A stretch of DNA of 64,000 nucleotides, taken from contig CALSSJ010000026.1 in the NCBI GenBank assembly GCA_943788985.1, positions 87,744 to 151,743 of the forward strand, read 5' to 3'. A program made the translations under genes and the position numbers. The DNA is from an uncultured Lentisphaerales bacterium (GTDB taxonomy: Bacteria > Verrucomicrobiota > Lentisphaeria > JABSQK01 > UBA12247). How positions within the stretch are numbered: position 1 is the stretch's first letter; each line of letters starts with the position of its first letter. Of this stretch, positions 55,471-64,000 are shown piece after piece. Below the pieces are notes generated by a model, which saw only the letters and a list, made by a program, of their open reading frames with translations, searched no databases and was not told the DNA's origin.

Positions 55471-55669
55471 CTGAGCAACCCCACATCGTGAAGCTCAAGG
55501 AGTATCTGTGCGAGGGAGTGAATCCAGTCATCCGAGCCGGGGTGAAGACCGTTACGCCCAAAGCGGTCAGCTACGACAGCCCTTTGTGCAAGACGTGGAA
55601 GAAGGCGCTAATCGAATTGAAGAAAAGGATCAGTCGGTCGAGACTCATGTGGCGAGCCGACTGGACGCG

Positions 55670-56200
55670 ATGGAGCTGACCTGTACCTACATCCTCGGCG
55701 CCAACGGGCGCTTCGAAAGCGCGACCGGGGCGGGCTACTGAATCTGGAAGTGGGGATCAAGTTCCTGGCCAGTGATCAATTTGATCGCTCGAGTTGGGAC
55801 AAGCAGGCCTACTGGTCGACCTACCCGGAGGGACACATCGGCCGGTTCACAACGGATAAGCCGGAATGGGCGCAGAAGCCCGACGCTACTTGGGCCCAAG
55901 ATATCTGGGAATTCTACTTCCTGGGCTGGGGGTGCCGGGCGGCAAGCTGCTGACCTATGCGGCGTATGCGACGAAGCAGACCATGAGGACCTACACCTTG
56001 GAGGATACCGATGCCAACAAGGCGCCAACCGGCGATGGCGATGGCAGAACCACTACAGCCCGTTTCGGGCAGTTCAGCGACAAGACCTACTACCTCTACC
56101 TCCTCGAAACGCTCGACTACACCTCCTCTGGGGCAACTACAGCTCCGAAATCCGGCCAGCAACTCAGCACCAGCGCGTGGCTGGACTTGGCCTGAATAAG
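55670..56200 (+). pseudogene. Degraded C-terminal fragment of a GH2-like glycosidase
   Basis: 'SWDKQAYWSTYPEGHIGR...WAQDIWEFYFLGWG'; frameshifts; paralogous to 22741-23110. Confidence 0.6.
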
Positions 56201-56211
56201 GGGGATGAATA

Positions 56212-56813
56212 ATGAGACTATGCGCTGTAGACAAGTCGCGCTCCACCCTGATTGAGTTACCGTTGATGATCGTCATCATCACCATCTTAGCATCTCTATT
56301 GCTGCCTTCGCTGGCGAAGGCCCGCGCAGCGGATCGGACGGCTTTTTGCCAGAATAATCTCAAGCAGATTTATCTGGCGCAGGCGCTGTACGCAAGCGAG
56401 AACAATGGAGGGACTGCCCATTCGCAGTCATGGATGTGGATGCTGACACCTGATCTTGGGCTCGACCGTACGAAGGTCTATCCCTGGCGTGATGTCTATG
56501 TCGAGGATCCTGGCAGCAATGTCCTGATCTGACCCAACGTCGAGATTGAACCGACCTACTACCGCGCCACAAACTATCGCGGATCCAAGTGGGCCTTCAC
56601 ACGCCAGCACAAACAGCGGAGCACCACACCGGCGTCTTGCTGGCAAGAGTGTCAAAGCCAACAGAAGCGATGCTTCTTGGCGAGTCGAGCCAAAATGGCT
56701 ACATCGACAACGGCGGTCAGTTGAAACGACTGTTTGTAGAAGGTCATGTCGGCAAGGGCGTTCTAACCAACGACTGGACTACGTCAATTGCCATCGCTGG
56801 TCATGGGCAGTGA
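56212..56813 (+). pseudogene. Degenerate prepilin-type (H-X9-DG family) gene
   Basis: '[44 protein letters not shown]'; TGA replaces the Cys of C-P; the C-terminal 'LFVEGHV' is in another frame. Confidence 0.75.
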
Positions 56814-56935
56814 AAGATCGCCCGCGATTTATTTTTACCATTTCACACATGAAATTCACCAGAAACACCATGCTCGTCTACGAACAGGCGATGTATAGTA
56901 GAGATTTTGTTTCAAGACAGGATACCACAGTGATC

Positions 56936-57859
56936 ATGACTGAAGATACAAAAGCCCCCAACCAGCCCCGGACGATCCTTTTCGGGAAATCCGAGTACAC
57001 GTTTCCGAGTGATGAATTGCGTCCGCTACGCGATAGCAGCGATGTCTTGGGAGATGCCGAGGCGATGCGGGAACGTCTGGCCGAGGATGGGTTTCTCTAC
57101 CTGCCCGGTTTTCTGGACCGTGAAGAAGTGCTGGCCGCGCGTCGGGAGATTCTGGCCTACATGGAGGAACAAGGCGGTCTCGAGCCGGACTCGCGCCCAT
57201 TGGACGGGGTCATGGGCCAGTACGGAAAAGGCGTGCCGATGATGGGGCGAAAGCTAATTACCCATCGCGACGCAGTGTCGCGAGTGCTGGCTGCACAGAG
57301 GTTGTACGAATTGCATGAGATGATTCAGGGCGAACCGGTGACGACGTATGAGTACAAGTGGCTGCGGGCCGTTGGCAACGAGGAATTCACGGGTGCGCAC
57401 ATGGACCACGTCTATATGGGCCGCGGCTCCAAGCGGCTGATGACAGTGTGGATTCCGTTGGCAGACATCCCCGTGGAACAGGGAACGCTGTGCATCGTTC
57501 CGGCAACCCACCGCCTTCCCGAGTTTGAGAAGCTGCGCAATACCTATGGGCGAATGGACGTGGACCGAGACCGGACTGAGGGCTGGTTTACGAAGAAGCC
57601 GCGGGAAATTACAGATACATTCGGCGGCTGCTGGCATACGACGAATATTCAGGCAGGGGATGTGATTACATTCGGGATGCATCTGATGCATGCCTCGACG
57701 ACCAACCTGACGGACAAGTGGCGGATATCCTGCGATGTGCGCTTCCAGCCATCTGCTGACCAGATTGATCCGCGCTGGGCGGGCAAAGAGCCCAAGGGAC
57801 ACCGACCGGCTCCTGATGAACGCCCCATGGCCGAAGCCCGGGCCGAATGGGGAATATGA
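56936..57859 (+). CDS. Phytanoyl-CoA dioxygenase (PhyH) family Fe(II)/2OG oxygenase
   Basis: 'EDGFLYLPG', HxD 'TGAHMD', 'TVWIPLADIP..QGTL', 'AGDVITF...MHAS..N...WRISCDVRFQ'. Confidence 0.9.
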   Translation: MTEDTKAPNQPRTILFGKSEYTFPSDELRPLRDSSDVLGDAEAMRERLAEDGFLYLPGFLDREEVLAARREILAYMEEQGGLEPDSRPLDGVMGQYGKGVPMMGRKLITHRDAVSRVLAAQRLYELHEMIQGEPVTTYEYKWLRAVGNEEFTGAHMDHVYMGRGSKRLMTVWIPLADIPVEQGTLCIVPATHRLPEFEKLRNTYGRMDVDRDRTEGWFTKKPREITDTFGGCWHTTNIQAGDVITFGMHLMHASTTNLTDKWRISCDVRFQPSADQIDPRWAGKEPKGHRPAPDERPMAEARAEWGI

Positions 57860-57974: not shown

Positions 57975-58382
57975 AAGGAAAAGCTGCTGAAGGATTGGCA
58001 GCTGATGGAGAAGATTGCTGATGCTGGCAAAATATGCGTGTAGCGATTCGGGCCAGAGCCGACACCCGATTCAGCGCTGTCGCAGGGGGCTCACGAGGCC
58101 CCAATCACTCACAGGACCAAGCAATAGGCCGACTTGTCTCGAAAGCAATTGCCGTTCTATCTCTCAGTGTACCTGATCGGTGCCCAGCCACATTCCTATT
58201 TCCAGTGGAATTGGGTCTGGGACTTGAGAGCGGGGCCGCTCGAACACTATCCAGAATTTCAGCGACCGCTGGGCAAGTACCGGCGGGTTCACCCGGATCG
58301 CTGGGAGTTTACCCGCGACTTTGAGCACGTCAGCGTCTGGGTCGATACAGAGAAATGGCAAGCGAACCTGGACTGGAAATAG
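57975..58382 (+). pseudogene. C-terminal remnant of a GHL15-like hydrolase, paralogue of 17719-18828
   Basis: 'KDWQLMEKIADAGKICV*RFG...YLIGAQPHSYFQWNW.WDL..GPL...EFQRPLGK' aligns to the 17719 ORF; TAG at 58041 replaces Trp. Confidence 0.85.
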
Positions 58383-58391
58383 CCTCCTGTA

Positions 58392-58448
58392 AAGCGCCGC
58401 CCCAACATTCTTTTCCTGTTATCAGATCAGCAGCGAGCGAACACTCTG
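58392..58448 (+). pseudogene. Sulfatase N-terminal micro-remnant
   Basis: 'KRRPNILFLLSDQQRANTL'. Confidence 0.5.
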
Positions 58449-58552: not shown

Positions 58553-58685
58553 GAACAGATTGGTGATGGCCGTCGGCTACGAGCCAGAGTACCAACTGAG
58601 TACGATGACTCCGATCAATCCGAACCGCAATCGTCAACCACGCACTGCACCTGTTAGCGCCAAGGCGCCATAGGTGAGTGCGGGG

Positions 58686-58744
58686 TTATAACGTCACTCC
58701 TCAGGCGCGGCCTTCAGGACGTCGCCTGCAGGAGATGGTTCGGT
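58686..58744 (-). repeat. attC site A (59 bp)
   Basis: Minus: ACCGAAC catct CCTGCAGG ... CCTGAGG agtgac GTTATAA; L'' carries one extra base. Confidence 0.9.
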
Positions 58745-60337
58745 TCGTCCTCTGTAGGCGGTGTTTGCCCTGGTTGAACGTTGCATGCTTTTCATGGATG
58801 TTGCTTTGTCCCGTTTCGCAGATGTCTGCTCCTTGCTCTCGCCCGGGTTCACATACCACTCGCTGTCGATATGGGCTTCGGTAAAGACCTGCCTGAGTCT
58901 GTCGATGACCTCCGGATTGCTTTTTGCTAGATCATTCTTGCACGCAAGGTCCTCAGTGACGTCATACAGCTTTATCGGTTTGGAAGGGTGATCCCGGTAT
59001 GCCCACCACTGATCCAGGCGAATACTTTGAGCATGCGGTGACATGGTTCCATTCTCCCAATAGAGATATCGATGTGTCTCTTGTTCATCCGGTTTGCCGC
59101 GCAGTATCGGGGCGAAGCTGATCCCATCGGTTTTCGGGGGAGCGATACTTGCCAGGTCGGCTACCGTTGCCAATACGTCATACAGGGCGCAGAGGTGGTC
59201 ATTTTCTCCTGCCTTAATCTTGTCCTTCCAATAGACGAAGAAGGGAACTCGCACACCACCTTCATGGGTGGAGGTGAACTTCCCTTTCGGCCATGGACCT
59301 TTGTTCTTGAACAGAGGATCATCCTCATGTCGAGGTCTGCCGAAGTACCCCCACTGGCTGTATCCATTGTCACCGGCAAAGAAGATTACGGTGTTATCCA
59401 GGATCTCAAGCTGCTCCATCAGGTCAACCATCCTTCCAACGCCGCGGTCCAGGTGCCCGAGCATGGCTGCCCATTCCTTGTGTTTCAGGTCCCAAGGCTT
59501 GTCTTTGTAGGCTCCAAGGTCGGGTGTGATACACGGGCCGTGGGGAAGTTGGGTTGCGTAGTAGAGGAAGAAAGGTTTGTCCCGGTTCTTTTTAATAAAC
59601 GAAAGAGCCTCATCCTGGAACAGGTCTTCGGAATATTTTGCCGCGGCGGCGACTGGGACACCGTCGGGGACGAGGTGCCCATGCTCGTCGTATATGTTCT
59701 TCACGTCGTCCAGTCTATCTGGCGGACGCCCATTGTAGGTGTAAACACGCTTCATGTTGAATCCGTAATTCTCAGGAATCGGCTCCGGCTTCCCGTTTCT
59801 CATCAGGTAGTGGGGGAAGAAGCCATGAGCCCGCCCCTGATCGTAGTATCCGTACGAGAAGTCGAATCCCTGCTTGTCAGGAGCTCCCTCGGTGCCGGGC
59901 AAACCAATGCCCCACTTGCCGATAAAACCTGTGGTGTACCCGGCCCCTTTGAGCACCTCGGCCACCGTGACATCCTCACTCAACAGGTGATCCTGTCCCC
60001 GGACTGAACTATTTGCGCGGATACGGCAATGTCCCATGTGCATTCCGGTCATCAGGCTTCCGCGGGATGGGGCGCATTCCGGCGAACCGCTATACGCCTG
60101 AGTGAACCGGATGCCGTTCATTGCCAGCTTATCGAGATTGGGAGTCCGAAACTGCTCTTGTCCGTAGCTGCTCAAATCGCGGTATGACAGGTCGTCTGAG
60201 AAAATGAACAGTATATTGGGCTTGCGCTCGAGCTCTTTTGCGAGCGTCGAGCAACAGAGCATCGCCACCGTAATCATACCCAGACCAAGGTGTGTCAGGA
60301 TGTGCCATTGTCCAAAAGCTCGTTTAGTACTTGTCAT
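58694..60337 (-). CDS. Sulfatase (S1, Cys-type) carried as a gene cassette
   Basis: AGGAGG RBS right after attC B; 'PNILFIFSDDLSY', 'CAPSRGSLMTG', 'GKWG', 'HEGGVRVP'; stop codon lies inside attC A. Confidence 0.95.
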   Translation of the reverse strand: MTSTKRAFGQWHILTHLGLGMITVAMLCCSTLAKELERKPNILFIFSDDLSYRDLSSYGQEQFRTPNLDKLAMNGIRFTQAYSGSPECAPSRGSLMTGMHMGHCRIRANSSVRGQDHLLSEDVTVAEVLKGAGYTTGFIGKWGIGLPGTEGAPDKQGFDFSYGYYDQGRAHGFFPHYLMRNGKPEPIPENYGFNMKRVYTYNGRPPDRLDDVKNIYDEHGHLVPDGVPVAAAAKYSEDLFQDEALSFIKKNRDKPFFLYYATQLPHGPCITPDLGAYKDKPWDLKHKEWAAMLGHLDRGVGRMVDLMEQLEILDNTVIFFAGDNGYSQWGYFGRPRHEDDPLFKNKGPWPKGKFTSTHEGGVRVPFFVYWKDKIKAGENDHLCALYDVLATVADLASIAPPKTDGISFAPILRGKPDEQETHRYLYWENGTMSPHAQSIRLDQWWAYRDHPSKPIKLYDVTEDLACKNDLAKSNPEVIDRLRQVFTEAHIDSEWYVNPGESKEQTSAKRDKATSMKSMQRSTRANTAYRGRTEPSPAGDVLKAAPEE

Positions 60338-60355
60338 TTTGTCGTAGCCTCCTGT

Positions 60356-60482
60356 ACCGAACGTCAAAGCTGACCCACGCCTGAACGGAGAGCGAGCTTT
60401 GACTTCAGGATGATTGTTTGGCCGGACATTGCGCTTTCGACTCGCAGCGGGGCAGGCGTTGGCGTCCAGCCGCTTGTTCGCT
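60356..60482 (-). repeat. attC site B (127 bp)
   Basis: Minus: AGCGAAC aagcg GCTGGACG ... GGTCAGC tttgac GTTCGGT. Confidence 0.9.
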
Positions 60483-60493
60483 CGCGAATGCCC

Positions 60494-61531
60494 CTACTTC
60501 TTTGCTTCCGAGCGTTTGAGGTAAATGGACTTGTCATAATAGGACACATGAGCATCGGTTGCGTTCAATACATCCATGCCAATGATACACGAATGTTTTT
60601 TGATTTCTCCCGAAACTACAGACGTCCTGGGGCGCACACCGGCAATCGATATTTTTCCAATTCTGAATTCCTCGAGTTCAACCCGTTCCGATTTATGAGA
60701 GTGGCCGTTCGCATTCGTTGTGCCTCCCCCCGCAGCCCCGCCCGACCCGCTCAATGCCTGATTCCTGTAAGGCCTTTGGATTCACCGCCGTTTTGGTGGC
60801 GCCCGTATCAAGGAGAGCCCGCATTTTCTTCCCGTTAATTGAGGTCTCGACCAAGGTTCTCTTTTTTTTTGCAGAAGGGAATGAAGCAATATCTCCAATT
60901 GGGGCAATCAAATTCGATTGGGTGGCGATAGTATGCCTCCTGGTCGGTGAAAGCGTCCCGAGTTGGAAAGCTGACATCGGCACCCTTCTCAGGCACTTCG
61001 AGCAGGAGGGCCTGATCGGGAATAGAAAGAATGGCATGAAGCGACTTCATGACATCCTCTCCAATGATGGCCACAACAGGCGGGGCGTCATCCCCCTCTG
61101 CTTGTACAACAAGCTGAAAATCATCCGCATTGTTCGCCACAACGGAAAGAGGGCCGATTTGAAAGTGGATATCCACCTCATAGGACTCATGGACCTCACC
61201 CATCATACCATAAATGGTTTTTTCCCGCTGGCCTGTCGGCAATCTCGAACCCGCGTTCCTGGAGATAAGAGCGATTAAATCTGGTTTCCATCGCTCCTGT
61301 ATCTAGCATGGCGAAGGCCTCTTCTCCCCCGACAACGATCCGGATGAAGAGATGTCCTGAATCGTGAATATCGGAACAGCGACCGCATAGCAGACCTATT
61401 TTTCCCTTCTCAAAAGGGTGCACATAAAAGACGGGCTTCCTGGATATCTCGCTTGCGGAAGGAAAGATGACCGCGATCAGCACCGCGACGGCTGCGGCGA
61501 AAACCGACAAAAGTAAGATTCTGCGCGGCAT
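60494..61531 (-). CDS. Cassette-borne retropepsin-like aspartyl protease with two DTG domains, broken by frameshifts in homopolymer runs
   Basis: 'FAMLDTGA' and 'RALLDTGATKTAV', 'IIGEDVM', 'IIGMDVL'; frame changes near 61220, 60865 and 60730. Confidence 0.75.
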
Positions 61532-61543
61532 CGGTAGATTATG

Positions 61544-61602
61544 AGCGAACGTTACGAGTGACCCTTCGCGGGCCCGCGATAAACTCCCCACGCTGGTTGG
61601 CC
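61544..61602 (-). repeat. attC site C (59 bp, L'' arm degenerate)
   Basis: Minus: GGCCAAC ... tcgcgggcccgcga hairpin ... GGTCACT cgtaac GTTCGCT. Confidence 0.75.
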
Positions 61603-61981
61603 GTTCTTGTTTCAACGTGAATCTGCATACAAGCAGAGAAAGCAGGAGCACGAGATAGGAACCGGGCCATCCGACCCAGAGATTACATGGTGTCGCAACG
61701 ACTATCCATGTAAGCGCCGATGCTCCGGTGATCATGCCGACCTTGACGGGCGGGAGTCTCCATCCCAGAAGGGTATAGAATGGCCACGAGATGATCGCGC
61801 AGACCGCAACAGGCATCGACAAGCCCAGCAAGAAAGGAGGATGGTGGAGCGTGGACAGCCCATGAGCTAAGAAGACCTCCGGCAGACTCAGCGTTTGCAC
61901 GATTAGCCAAGCCGTAGCGAAGACGAGCGACGAGATGACGCTGACTCCGAGGTACGCGATGACTCTGTGCATTGTTTTCAT
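61603..61981 (-). CDS. Cassette-borne small 4-TM membrane protein (no stop codon before attC C as assembled)
   Basis: ATG 61981 just after attC D; four hydrophobic segments; frame runs through attC C. Confidence 0.6.
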
Positions 61982-61987
61982 TTTATC

Positions 61988-62063
61988 GGCGAACGTCCAA
62001 GCTCACCCGATGAGGCCGGCCGCGGAGCGCCTGGCCGAATTAGGGTGAAGCGCAGTGTTCGAT
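61988..62063 (-). repeat. attC site D (76 bp)
   Basis: Minus: ATCGAAC actgc GCTTCACC ... GGTGAGC ttggac GTTCGCC. Confidence 0.9.
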
Positions 62064-62102: not shown

Positions 62103-62444
62103 TTATGAAGGGTCAGCAACGGGATCCTCTCCAAATCTGTTCGGACCTGTGGTCCCTTTTAGAAAGCAAATTTCTGTCAAAGGCCATAGGTTTACGAGTG
62201 GAACTAGGTAAAGCAAAATAAACCATCCGGAGCGGTTGCGATCATGACACCGCTTGATTTGGACTGCCAAGAATACCCAAATCGCTAAGAAACCAACTAT
62301 AGAAGAAAATAATTCCCGCTCTATTAGGCCATCAATTATGCCCACGATGATAGATATACCTGCAAATGCCAAATATGTCCTCAACCAGAGATCGGACCGG
62401 CTTGCCCTTCCCTTTGGTGAGAACCACAGTGTTATTATATTCAT
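62103..62444 (-). CDS. DUF805 family membrane protein (cassette)
   Basis: 'FSPKGRASRSDLW', 'AVQIKRCHDRNRSGWFILL', 'KGTTGPNRFGEDP'. Confidence 0.92.
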   Translation of the reverse strand: MNIITLWFSPKGRASRSDLWLRTYLAFAGISIIVGIIDGLIERELFSSIVGFLAIWVFLAVQIKRCHDRNRSGWFILLYLVPLVNLWPLTEICFLKGTTGPNRFGEDPVADPS

Positions 62445-62466: not shown

Positions 62467-62564
62467 ATCGAATGTCAAACGCTCGCCGAATCAGGTCGAG
62501 TGCCTTTAGGCGTCCCCGCCGGGAGGAGGTCTTGGATTTAGCAGTTAAGCATATGAAGTTCGGC
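62467..62564 (-). repeat. Degenerate attC site E (right half recognisable, R' = ATTCGAT)
   Basis: Minus '...GGCGAGC gtttgac ATTCGAT' resembles the right arms of B and D; TTCGAT matches the R'' of attC D; left boundary uncertain. Confidence 0.55.
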
Positions 62565-62623
62565 CCCTGGCCTCAACTTCCCGCTCATAAACAGCTTCCG
62601 TGTGCCATCAGCAAATCTTATGT

Positions 62624-62682
62624 AGCGAACGTCACTCCTCAGGCGCGGCCTTTAGGACGTCGCCTGCAAGAGATTGTTCTGC
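62624..62682 (-). repeat. attC site F (59 bp, same family as A)
   Basis: Minus: GCAGAAC aatct CTTGCAGG cgacgtcctaaaggccgcg CCTGAGG agtgac GTTCGCT. Confidence 0.9.
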
Positions 62683-63396
62683 GGCTCTTCGTTCGTCTCG
62701 CATTACTGAGATCTGCGCTACGAGAAAAACTATGCCCAGTGCGAGGACACACAGTCCGACCGAAAGGAAGATGAATGTAACCCCCCGAAAGCCTGGCTCG
62801 AGTAGACACTTGCCCGGCTTATCGGGCATATAGTAGACGCGAGCACTGCTACCCTTGGGGTAGCGTTTGACGATGCGTCTTGCATGGGCCGACTTGCCTC
62901 GGCTAACATCTGTAGATGCGACACGATCGCCTTTGTATGTCACGCCATCAACGGTGAACTCATAAGTGACTTTGGCATGGTAAGATGTGCTTCTGTCCGT
63001 TCCGCTTCCCGACGTTTCACGCTCGACCACGGACTGCAGGATTCGGGCTTCGGTGCTGGGCCAGGTTCTGCTCTCAAAGCCCAGGGCAAGACCATGGATG
63101 CCGAACGCGGTAAATACTGTGCCAACCACGAGAAAAAGGGAAATGAAGCCCCATGTGGCTTTTGACTCCTGTTTTGCGGTCAGGGCGGGACGTGATGACG
63201 GCGCGGGCATGGCTTCCGGGAACTGCTCACTCATCCTGGAGACAATGCGTCCGGTCTCCATCGCGGCTTGAATCTTGCCAAGGCCCTTCTGCTCTATCAG
63301 TAACTGAGCCGCTTCCCGACACCTGTCTTGATAAATAAGGTCCTGAACGTCCCTGGGCACATCTTCCAAGTACTGCCTCTCACGCGTGTCATTCAT
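62632..63396 (-). CDS. DUF3592-like membrane protein (cassette)
   Basis: 'SRTWPSTEARILQS...VTYEFTVDGVTYKGDR...YPKGSSARVYYMPDKP..CLLEPG' between two TM helices; stop lies inside attC F. Confidence 0.85.
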   Translation of the reverse strand: MNDTRERQYLEDVPRDVQDLIYQDRCREAAQLLIEQKGLGKIQAAMETGRIVSRMSEQFPEAMPAPSSRPALTAKQESKATWGFISLFLVVGTVFTAFGIHGLALGFESRTWPSTEARILQSVVERETSGSGTDRSTSYHAKVTYEFTVDGVTYKGDRVASTDVSRGKSAHARRIVKRYPKGSSARVYYMPDKPGKCLLEPGFRGVTFIFLSVGLCVLALGIVFLVAQISVMRDERRAAEQSLAGDVLKAAPEE

Positions 63397-63410: not shown

Positions 63411-63469
63411 GCAGAATGCCACTCCTTAGGCGCGGCCTTTAAGCTGCCGCCTGGAGGAGATTGTTCGTA
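63411..63469 (-). repeat. attC site G (59 bp, same family as A/F; R' = ATTCTGC)
   Basis: Minus: TACGAAC aatct CCTCCAGG cggcagcttaaaggccgcg CCTAAGG agtggc ATTCTGC. Confidence 0.85.
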
Positions 63470-63472
63470 CTG

Positions 63473-64000
63473 CTATTGTACTTCTGCTTCAAAAGCCCCT
63501 GCGACAAAGCTCTTTGCCTCGTCCGGCAGGCGCAGATGAATCTTGCCGGGTATCTTGCCGTTCGAGGCGGTGCCGAACTCCAGTTTCATGGAATAGCCTT
63601 TTAAATAGGTTTCCGATTCGGGCAGCCTGCTGCCCTCGACCTTGTATTTCAAATAGATATGCGGTTGCTGCACTTGACCTTGCCGATTGGGTTTGACGAG
63701 GATAGTTTTTCCTGCAAGCTCCTTGACGGACGAACCAAGGATAAAAATTTCAAAGGCTTGATCGGGGAAGAAGCCTTCCCCCTGCATTAATTTCAGGTTT
63801 CCCTGGCTGCTCAGCGTCGCCTTTTCGACGGTGAAGGCAACGCCATGAACACTTCCCTTGGCCGTTCCGGCGGGGATGTCGTTTTCAGTCACATCGGCCG
63901 CCGCTGGTGGAGGGGGGGCATATCGTTTTGCAAAAGCCTCTTTGCTGATTCGGTTCAAGACAAACTTATCCTTCTCCCAGCTGAGCGTGAGTTGATCGTG
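63473..64000 (-). CDS. Hypothetical cassette protein, 5' end beyond the window
   Basis: Frame open to base 64000; stop 3 bp before attC G; C-terminal 'KGYSMKLEFG....KIPGKIHLRLPDEAKSFVAGAFEA'. Confidence 0.7.
   Translation of the reverse strand, partial: HDQLTLSWEKDKFVLNRISKEAFAKRYAPPPPAAADVTENDIPAGTAKGSVHGVAFTVEKATLSSQGNLKLMQGEGFFPDQAFEIFILGSSVKELAGKTILVKPNRQGQVQQPHIYLKYKVEGSRLPESETYLKGYSMKLEFGTASNGKIPGKIHLRLPDEAKSFVAGAFEAEVQ

Follow-up and report, generated by a model that had tools for sequence, protein, structure and literature searches.

A full-length sulfatase gene carried as an integron cassette in a Lentisphaerales genome

The DNA analysed here (64,000 nucleotides from an uncultured Lentisphaerales bacterium, hereafter the window) contains a true integron gene cassette at positions 58692-60361. 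The cassette consists of an intact 547-aa S1 sulfatase gene and a canonical 59-bp attC site (attC A), which encodes the last 16 residues of the protein. We believe with high confidence that this is a mobile sulfatase cassette that was captured once, has kept its function, has been partly domesticated, and represents a minor route for host sulfatases.

The cassette and its array

Integron recombination by IntI takes place between folded bottom strands, with the crossover at G|TT. The features of the cassette, in window coordinates, are as follows.

58692..60361, minus strand: cassette unit of 1,670 bp, beginning at the TT next to the G of attC B and ending at the G of attC A
58694..60337, minus strand: S1 sulfatase ORF, 547 aa, formylglycine type with Cys, closest to S1_20
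58686..58744, minus strand: attC A, 59 bp, the cassette's own site; R'' ACCGAAC, L'' CCTGCAGG, L' CCTGAGG, R' GTT
60348..60353, minus strand: Shine-Dalgarno-like AGGAGG (AGGCGG at the same place in many homologues)
60356-60362, minus strand: R' of attC B, GTTCGGT, the 5' core of the sulfatase cassette
60356..60482, minus strand: attC B, 127 bp, site of the upstream aspartic-protease cassette, giving the 5' crossover of the sulfatase cassette; score 12.1

The motifs named in the preliminary description (GTTCGGT, AGGAGG, ATG and ACCGAAC) are all present where it placed them. The ATG, said to lie “within about 20 nt” of GTTCGGT, is at 60337, 18 nt past R' and 10 nt past the ribosome-binding site. 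ACCGAAC, the R'' of attC A, is indeed a “perfect complement” of the 5' core GTTCGGT (7/7, the R'/R'' rule). The statement that the gene is “bounded exactly” by attC A needs correction: the ORF overlaps the site, with codons 532-547 and the stop (58694-58696) inside it.

In attC A, R'' lies at 58738-58744, and the spacer, L'' and L' are 5, 8 and 7 nt long. The bottom strand has an extrahelical C and an extrahelical T separated by a 6-bp stem; the first is C instead of the usual G, and the last is T as expected. The available part of PMC5027507 describes attC sites by an L''/L' stem, extrahelical bases 6 bp apart, the last of them T, and a length of 57-141 bp. The bottom strand of attC A folds with z=-4.4 (equal stability in 0/200 shuffles), and the probability of its recombinogenic fold is 0.15; such probabilities come from a constraint calculation of our own. 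attC B folds poorly: the same probability is 0.008, and its free fold is no better than that of shuffles. It is 74% alike to one attC on contig C20. Covariation within the attC family was not significant (86/500 shuffles were as high), and an Rfam scan of 56-64 kb gave a single chance match. Sites were called with our own heuristic scanner, not with IntegronFinder; it misses some real sites, so an uncalled upstream attC does not mean absence.

The genome measures 4.58 Mb at 84% completeness, and the window forms the end of its contig C26. The sulfatase is the last cassette of an attC array that runs off the contig at 64000; upstream of it are five further cassette units, one of them lacking an ORF, and a sixth that is cut by the contig end. 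The remaining features of the array and its left end are listed below.

58134-58382: GHL15 remnant (PF14885), preceding the sulfatase remnant
58392..58448, plus strand: short 5' remnant of another sulfatase gene, ~19 codons, from direct reading of the sequence
58632..58691, plus strand: inverted attC facing attC A, score 10.7, z=-4.4 and -4.0; marks the left end of the array
60362..61549, minus strand: aspartic-protease cassette, clan AA (TIGR02281); the ORF is intact at locus L007
61544..61602, minus strand: attC C, R'' GGCCAAC, R' GTTCGCT; weaker, read by eye, uncalled by the scanner
61988..62063, minus strand: attC D, 76 bp, score 13.6, fold probability 0.4
62103-62444: DUF805 cassette (PF05656), followed by attC D
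62624..62682, minus strand: attC F, 94% identical to attC A over 52 nt
62632-63396: DUF3592 ORF, which reads through attC F and has the same peptide tail as the sulfatase
63411..63469, minus strand: attC G, attC-A family, with ATT replacing GTT

The inverted attC has the palindrome GTTATAAC in common with attC A, the same being true at L007; the segment 58632-58744 may be described as two attC sites head to head on this palindrome. The left end of the array is a decayed glycan-degradation locus. The preliminary description put the gene “beside” a sulfatase-rich island, which is not the case: the nearest other full-length sulfatase ORFs of the window are at 11.2-17.6 kb, 41 kb from the cassette, and just the ~19-codon remnant adjoins the array.

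Runs X1, X2 and X5 as well as L007 lack the single-base insertions that the assembly shows at 60736, 60862 and 61218 of the protease cassette; these three frameshifts are assembly errors. Many “broken” genes of the host genome, intI included, may be assembly artefacts. Several peculiarities of the array can be mentioned in addition. The 145-aa cassette ORF (61196-61981) continues in frame through attC C into the protease cassette, and at L007:812-2293 one 494-aa ORF covers both cassettes. The ORF-less unit at 62474-62629 (157 bp) has a degenerate attC ending in ATT.

The integrase gene, intI, is on contig C20; it is above the TIGR02249 cut-off and heads a second attC array, with a candidate attI present. 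The C20 array runs off its contig in the orientation matching the C26 array, and the two are likely one array split by assembly; the attI end and intI of the window array would then most likely be those on C20. No sequence bridging C20 and C26 was found, and their terminal core sites mismatch, so at least one boundary is missing. The R'/R'' rule is obeyed at 6/7 or 7/7 positions in 13/13 cassettes checked in the two arrays. Outside contigs C20 and C26, strict attC-like matches of comparable score number 0.009 per kb. The assembly splits intI over two frames; since the three protease-cassette frameshifts of the window array proved to be errors, this one is possibly an error too. A perfect sigma-54-type motif lies upstream of intI (approximately L166:8230-8260). 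The segments 55479-57403 of the window and L166:12328-15733 are 79-81% identical (a prepilin-like gene and a PhyH remnant) and lie on both outer sides of the presumed integron.

The sulfatase, its homologues and their movement

The protein has a full PF00884 domain (E=1.4e-51), and its best solved relatives are PDB 7ANA (E=3e-83) and 7AN1 (E=2.5e-63); no NCBIfam sulfatase equivalog was found at cut-off. The catalytic and metal residues are intact (D48, D49, C88, P90, R92, K141, H266, D323, N324, K353), the C/S-x-P-x-R motif is present, and the host genome has five FGE-domain matches (for the maturation of formylglycine sulfatases, see the accessible text of PMC6388578). The two structures were deposited with a study of S1_20 (bioRxiv 10.1101/2020.11.20.392076, consulted in part, also for the comparisons that follow). 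As in BT1636 and BT1622, the S1_20 enzymes of Bacteroides thetaiotaomicron acting on 3-O-sulfo-Gal/GalNAc, the galactose-selecting Gln/His pair is kept; it corresponds to Q167 and H171 and is invariant in 24/24 aligned sequences. The cassette sulfatase matches 7/10 positions of the S1_20 motif, and it has Cys at the catalytic position where the solved chains of BT1636 and BT1622 have Ser. In the 7ANA and 7AN1 alignments, the equivalents of E100, E334/N334 and R353/C357 are changed; hence, the substrate probably differs from that of BT1636 and BT1622, and an identical substrate was rejected on these grounds. According to the same preprint, these O2/O6-binding residues are just 64-74% conserved within S1_20.

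Our best guess for the subfamily is “S1_20 or near”. The protein is probably exported after maturation by a host enzyme and would work as an exo-sulfatase on a galacto-configured sugar that carries sulfate; Sec export is a guess from the hydrophobic N-terminus read by eye. A twin-arginine-like motif occurs in 22/67 outside homologues vs 0/13 proteins of the clade described below. AlphaFold2 was run on 24 sequences (mean pLDDT 48.9), and the models were not used.

Two collection scans gave 159 homologous loci; many of them represent one strain in different samples, so the locus counts overstate independence. The preliminary description asked whether close homologues elsewhere are flanked by attC, and most are: among loci with a readable 3' flank, the attC-A sequence follows the gene in 27/31 at no less than 78% identity to the sulfatase. 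The count is 1/52 at 50-78% identity, the exception (L075) being a fragment of the clade, and 0/35 among homologue loci below 50%. The close homologues (>=78%) come from Lentisphaera, Opitutales and Oceaniferula. At the 5' end, the core is still present in 25/34 close loci vs 0/51 controls.

The neighbours of the gene vary. There are 9 upstream flank classes among the close loci, and 15 downstream classes among 18 rows chosen by us, a few of which differ just by an offset or share their first bases. Among the neighbouring cassettes at homologue loci are RelB/YafQ, BrnT and HigB; both toxin-antitoxin cassettes and other usual kinds occur. Comparison of loci and of contigs from independent runs places the switch of flanks at G|TT. 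Gene and attC move together as one unit amid changing neighbours. At L007, the flanks are the same on both sides as those of the window cassette.

Four marine/estuarine runs, which were found using this stretch and whose depths are summed over organisms, cover the cassette several-fold deeper than its flanks (in X2, 56-160 vs 7-22). In these runs, the contigs part from the window sequence with loose ends at the crossovers (58690/58691 and 60367). No circularising joint was found among the run contigs aligned to the cassette, and contigs drop rare forms. The RNA run X15 covers the gene; its contigs are summed over organisms, so transcription of the sulfatase here is not demonstrable from it.

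The cassette sulfatase is under purifying selection: dN/dS is 0.09-0.22 in 13/13 valid pairs and 0.09 against L007. Its presence is patchy, with a close copy in 2/60 relatives and in 0/400 further Verrucomicrobiae-class genomes queried with the cassette sulfatase. Its GC3 (0.63) is among the lowest 8 of the 94 host sulfatases.

Origin was considered on a quick tree (midpoint root, no clade test) of 73 rows, 68 of them distinct, taken from the 159 loci as near-full unbroken matches at >=50% and including the window; L108 and L112 were ignored for their long branches and odd composition. One clade of 24 rows (SH-aLRT 100) stands amid attC-less homologues from Planctomycetota, Bacteroidota and other sources. 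Considering that the more distant homologues lack attC, it is simplest to assume a single capture, in which a chromosomal S1 sulfatase gene of ordinary PVC/Bacteroidota type would have gained the 59-bp attC at its 3' end and been packaged once. Flanks that change at the crossover show that the cassette has since been excised and re-inserted in many arrays of marine bacteria of Lentisphaeria and Verrucomicrobiae type; as established integron biology suggests, IntI would have done this at G|TT. The dN/dS range suggests that function was kept. The gene lacks a promoter, every cassette promoter is distant from it, and we presume that it is stored and weakly expressed until moved.

Several copies appear to have left arrays and become domesticated at chromosomal sites while their attC decayed; the scars are observed, and this order of events is the one we presume. 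The non-array copies of Opitutales type adjoin housekeeping genes and retain attC scars; in most of them the 5' core TTCGGT is still there, and the AAC/GTT triplets are mutated. In several non-array copies a C-to-T change in R'' spoils AAC and makes a stop that removes the attC-encoded tail. A scarred copy lies in a GH32/sulfatase cluster (L022), another in a sulfatase/GH cluster with attC intact and no 5' core site (L008), and a third has lost attC (L090). Two copies are present at different sites of genome G034, one of them adjoining a sulfatase cluster; over gene plus attC they are 97% identical. Both have the same spoiled R', and the duplication need not be the work of IntI. The settlement of cassette-derived copies in chromosomal sites, several of them in sulfatase/glycosidase clusters, is thus supported. 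Seven integron-integrase matches were found in G034.

The cassette resembles known systems in many respects. The accessible portions of PMC5027507 and PMC5371416 describe attCaadA7-type 59-base-element cassettes with the same plan: a promoterless ORF plus attC, the R''/L''/L'/R' layout, extrahelical bases 6 bp apart, and G|TT. At 1.67 kb, it is within the ~2 kb given for the largest known cassettes in the part of PMC4889954 at hand. It differs from the usual short-attC cassettes in its full-length sulfatase cargo, the ORF running through the whole attC, and the first extrahelical C. Carbohydrate metabolism is the most under-represented category among cassettes (odds ratio 0.158) and the median length of metagenomic cassette genes is 402 nt (sd 308), as far as the available text of PMC7370490 goes. 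Sulfatases, for their part, are filed under another COG category.

The whole is also like the sedentary chromosomal integrons and CALIN elements of Cury et al. 2016 (PMC4889954, in part), with a heterogeneous attC array, intI in the genome, and isolated or decayed attC elsewhere; the same text names secondary-site insertion and rearrangement as sources of CALIN-type elements. The difference is that a common attC family lets individual cassettes be followed here out of arrays and into the polysaccharide-degradation clusters of several PVC classes. Integrons of Verrucomicrobiota and Planctomycetota are recorded in the accessible parts of PMC8618304 and PMC4889954. We found no report of sulfatase cassettes in the literature on integrons, attC, CAZymes and PVC, covered mostly at title level and with few subscription papers; a term search of the available PMC10661359 text gave no relevant passage. 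A permafrost preprint (10.1101/2025.02.12.637893), in its available part, gives sulfatases and CAZymes among mobile-element genes without splitting them by element, and its supplements may include integron-borne sulfatases.

Glycan-enzyme cassettes and sulfatase expansion

The sulfatase is not the sole glycan enzyme in these arrays. Three more sulfatases, sharing 25-28% identity with that of the window and among themselves, are found in sister arrays; one has a 7/7 boundary, and the sites of the other two are partly decayed. The C20 array carries a 551-aa MGH1-like glycoside hydrolase (L166:989-2641, boundary 7/7) and a 354-aa PhoD-like phosphatase as cassettes; the former has a 72% identical attC-less paralogue (L178:6182-7792) in a GH cluster on contig C2 of the same genome, and it is possible that the two are a cassette/ancestor pair. 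A GH43-like cassette carries an attC-A-family site. The same kind of site is found with a 917-aa DUF1961 protein (L047:2497-5247), a cassette of ~2.8 kb, which exceeds the ~2 kb quoted as the upper size. The attC-A-family model has matches in 10/150 class genomes, our own included; in four of them a site outside arrays adjoins a pectate-lyase-like, BNR-repeat, sulfatase or GH2 gene, and other matches adjoin unrelated genes.

The preliminary statement that the integron machinery “shuffles glycan-degradation enzymes” therefore stands as regards the cargo (four sulfatases 25-28% alike, MGH1-like and GH43-like hydrolases) and the cassette-derived copies in chromosomal clusters, twice in one genome. 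It does not extend to a main route of sulfatase expansion. Among the host's 94 sulfatase ORFs (>=250 aa; one full-length ORF per ~49 kb), an intact attC is found at one, the window cassette alone. Half-sites were searched with profiles trained on arrays of other organisms (score >=12): right ones follow 1/93 sulfatases vs 12/1,972 other genes of the host genome (p=0.45, no excess), and left ones 3/93, including the window cassette, vs 16/1,972 (p=0.05, no clear excess). Old scars could erode past detection, so these counts limit recent flow only. Searching with blastn and attC queries added few further sites, none of them within 400 nt of another full-length sulfatase.

Integron integrases are present in 26/151 class genomes. 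We took 20 integrase-adjoining regions, 12 of which contained arrays (172 attC calls, median spacing 420 bp). No sulfatase was found in these 12 arrays, including long ones from genomes with 250-343 sulfatase candidates, and CAZyme families matched 0/27 long ORFs scanned from the integrase-adjoining regions. Very long low-GC arrays with short cassettes and IS91-type insertions were seen at L214, L216, L218, L221 and L222.

Two candidates were set aside: a hit after a sulfatase on contig C5 (score 10.6) is at background level, and an apparent attC “cluster” on C21 is a non-attC inverted repeat. The latter (L170:4233-4978, G000 C21) is a repeated inverted element with the core CCACTAATTTTCACTAAT that flanks a small gene, and similar repeats occur in intergenic gaps of C12. 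C12 of the same genome also has a one-strand block of sulfatase, phosphatase-like and GH genes (34000-82000). In it, at least three genes are followed by what remains of attC half-sites; those recognised by eye come behind a sulfatase, a GH29-like gene and a BNR gene. In G025, the BNR gene is accompanied by a complete attC-family site, and there is a resemblance between some C12 genes and the cluster of G034. On C15 (L167:5977-6737), a DUF3050 gene and an IS91-type transposase precede a decayed long attC and then a truncated sulfatase; in L017, too, DUF3050 comes behind the sulfatase.

Alternative readings and meaning

It could be proposed that integrons are the main engine of sulfatase expansion and that chromosomal islands are largely old arrays with eroded attC. 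The four unrelated sulfatase cassettes in this pool, the two scarred copies in G034, the attC-A-family scars beside pectate-lyase-like, BNR-repeat, sulfatase and GH2 genes in four other genomes, the C12 remnants read by eye and the decayed attC before the truncated sulfatase on C15 are in its favour. We consider it unlikely in view of the single intact attC among 94 sulfatases, the half-sites that are no commoner on the right (1/93 vs 12/1,972, p=0.45) or clearly so on the left (3/93 vs 16/1,972, p=0.05), and the lack of sulfatases in 12 integrase-chosen arrays with 172 attC calls. The opposite direction of transfer, with the non-array copies as precursors beside which attC arose or landed and from which arrays took the gene, is about equally improbable. 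L008 fits it, having an intact attC behind the gene and no 5' core in a tight operon-like run of sulfatase/GH genes; however, most Opitutales-type copies keep the 5' core TTCGGT together with mutated AAC/GTT, which are marks of decay, and L008 and L090 nest among array copies. An explanation of the hairpins as terminators or REP-like repeats, with the sulfatase as an ordinary gene of an island, is extremely improbable. The free fold of attC B and the non-significant covariation would agree with it, but the R'/R'' rule in 13/13 cassettes, the presence of intI and an array in the same genome, and the switch of flanks at G|TT would not; this reading was rejected on account of the attC family in 27/31 close loci and the switching flanks.

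A real cassette that is now a frozen relic in its host, with a broken integrase, a poor attC B and a silent gene at the far end of the array, is compatible with the mobile-cassette explanation, bears on present activity alone and has a sizeable chance of being true, if somewhat below even. It agrees with intI lying in two frames, with the identical flanks of L007 on both sides, and with the decayed genes adjoining the array. The accessible text of PMC5371416 reports that excision drops for cassettes of >=1.5 kb if one site folds poorly, which fits the pairing of the sulfatase cassette with attC B (0.008). On the other hand, the three other frameshifts of the array are assembly errors and that of intI may be one too, attC A folds well (0.15), dN/dS to L007 is 0.09, and other integrases of the community could act on the cassette. 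The points that weigh against our preferred explanation, the mobile cassette captured once, include the failure to find a circularising joint among the run contigs, the unbridged C20-C26 join, the fold of attC B, the first extrahelical C of attC A, the covariation null, the frameshifted intI, the repeats of one strain among the loci, the heuristic scanner and the quick tree.

A broader reading is tentative and, in our opinion, doubtful: marine PVC bacteria would share a distinct stock of large cassettes for glycan enzymes (sulfatases, glycoside hydrolases, lyases, esterases), a good number of them with one attC family, integrases would deliver these to arrays and chromosomal degradation clusters, and a sizeable part of some PVC polysaccharide loci would be domesticated cassettes. 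If so, the sulfatase and GH genes would provide a direct handle on cassette creation, since chromosomal genes closely related to them but lacking attC were found (at 65-77% in the case of the sulfatase, and the 72% paralogue in that of the GH cassette).

The cassette route is not the source of most of the ~94 sulfatases of the host, nor does it explain the presence of about a hundred or more in these genomes; integrons bring in glycan enzymes here by a genuine side route, though a minor one, and the idea of expansion survives only in a weak form. The integron cassette is a known kind of element; this one stands out by its unusual cargo and its traceable domestication. The case of a full-length, selected sulfatase that moves as a cassette across PVC classes and settles in clusters with a readable scar is well supported. 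With it, integrons join the known means of exchanging glycan-degrading enzymes among marine bacteria, and the pairs of cassette and non-cassette genes can be used to study how cassettes are created and domesticated.
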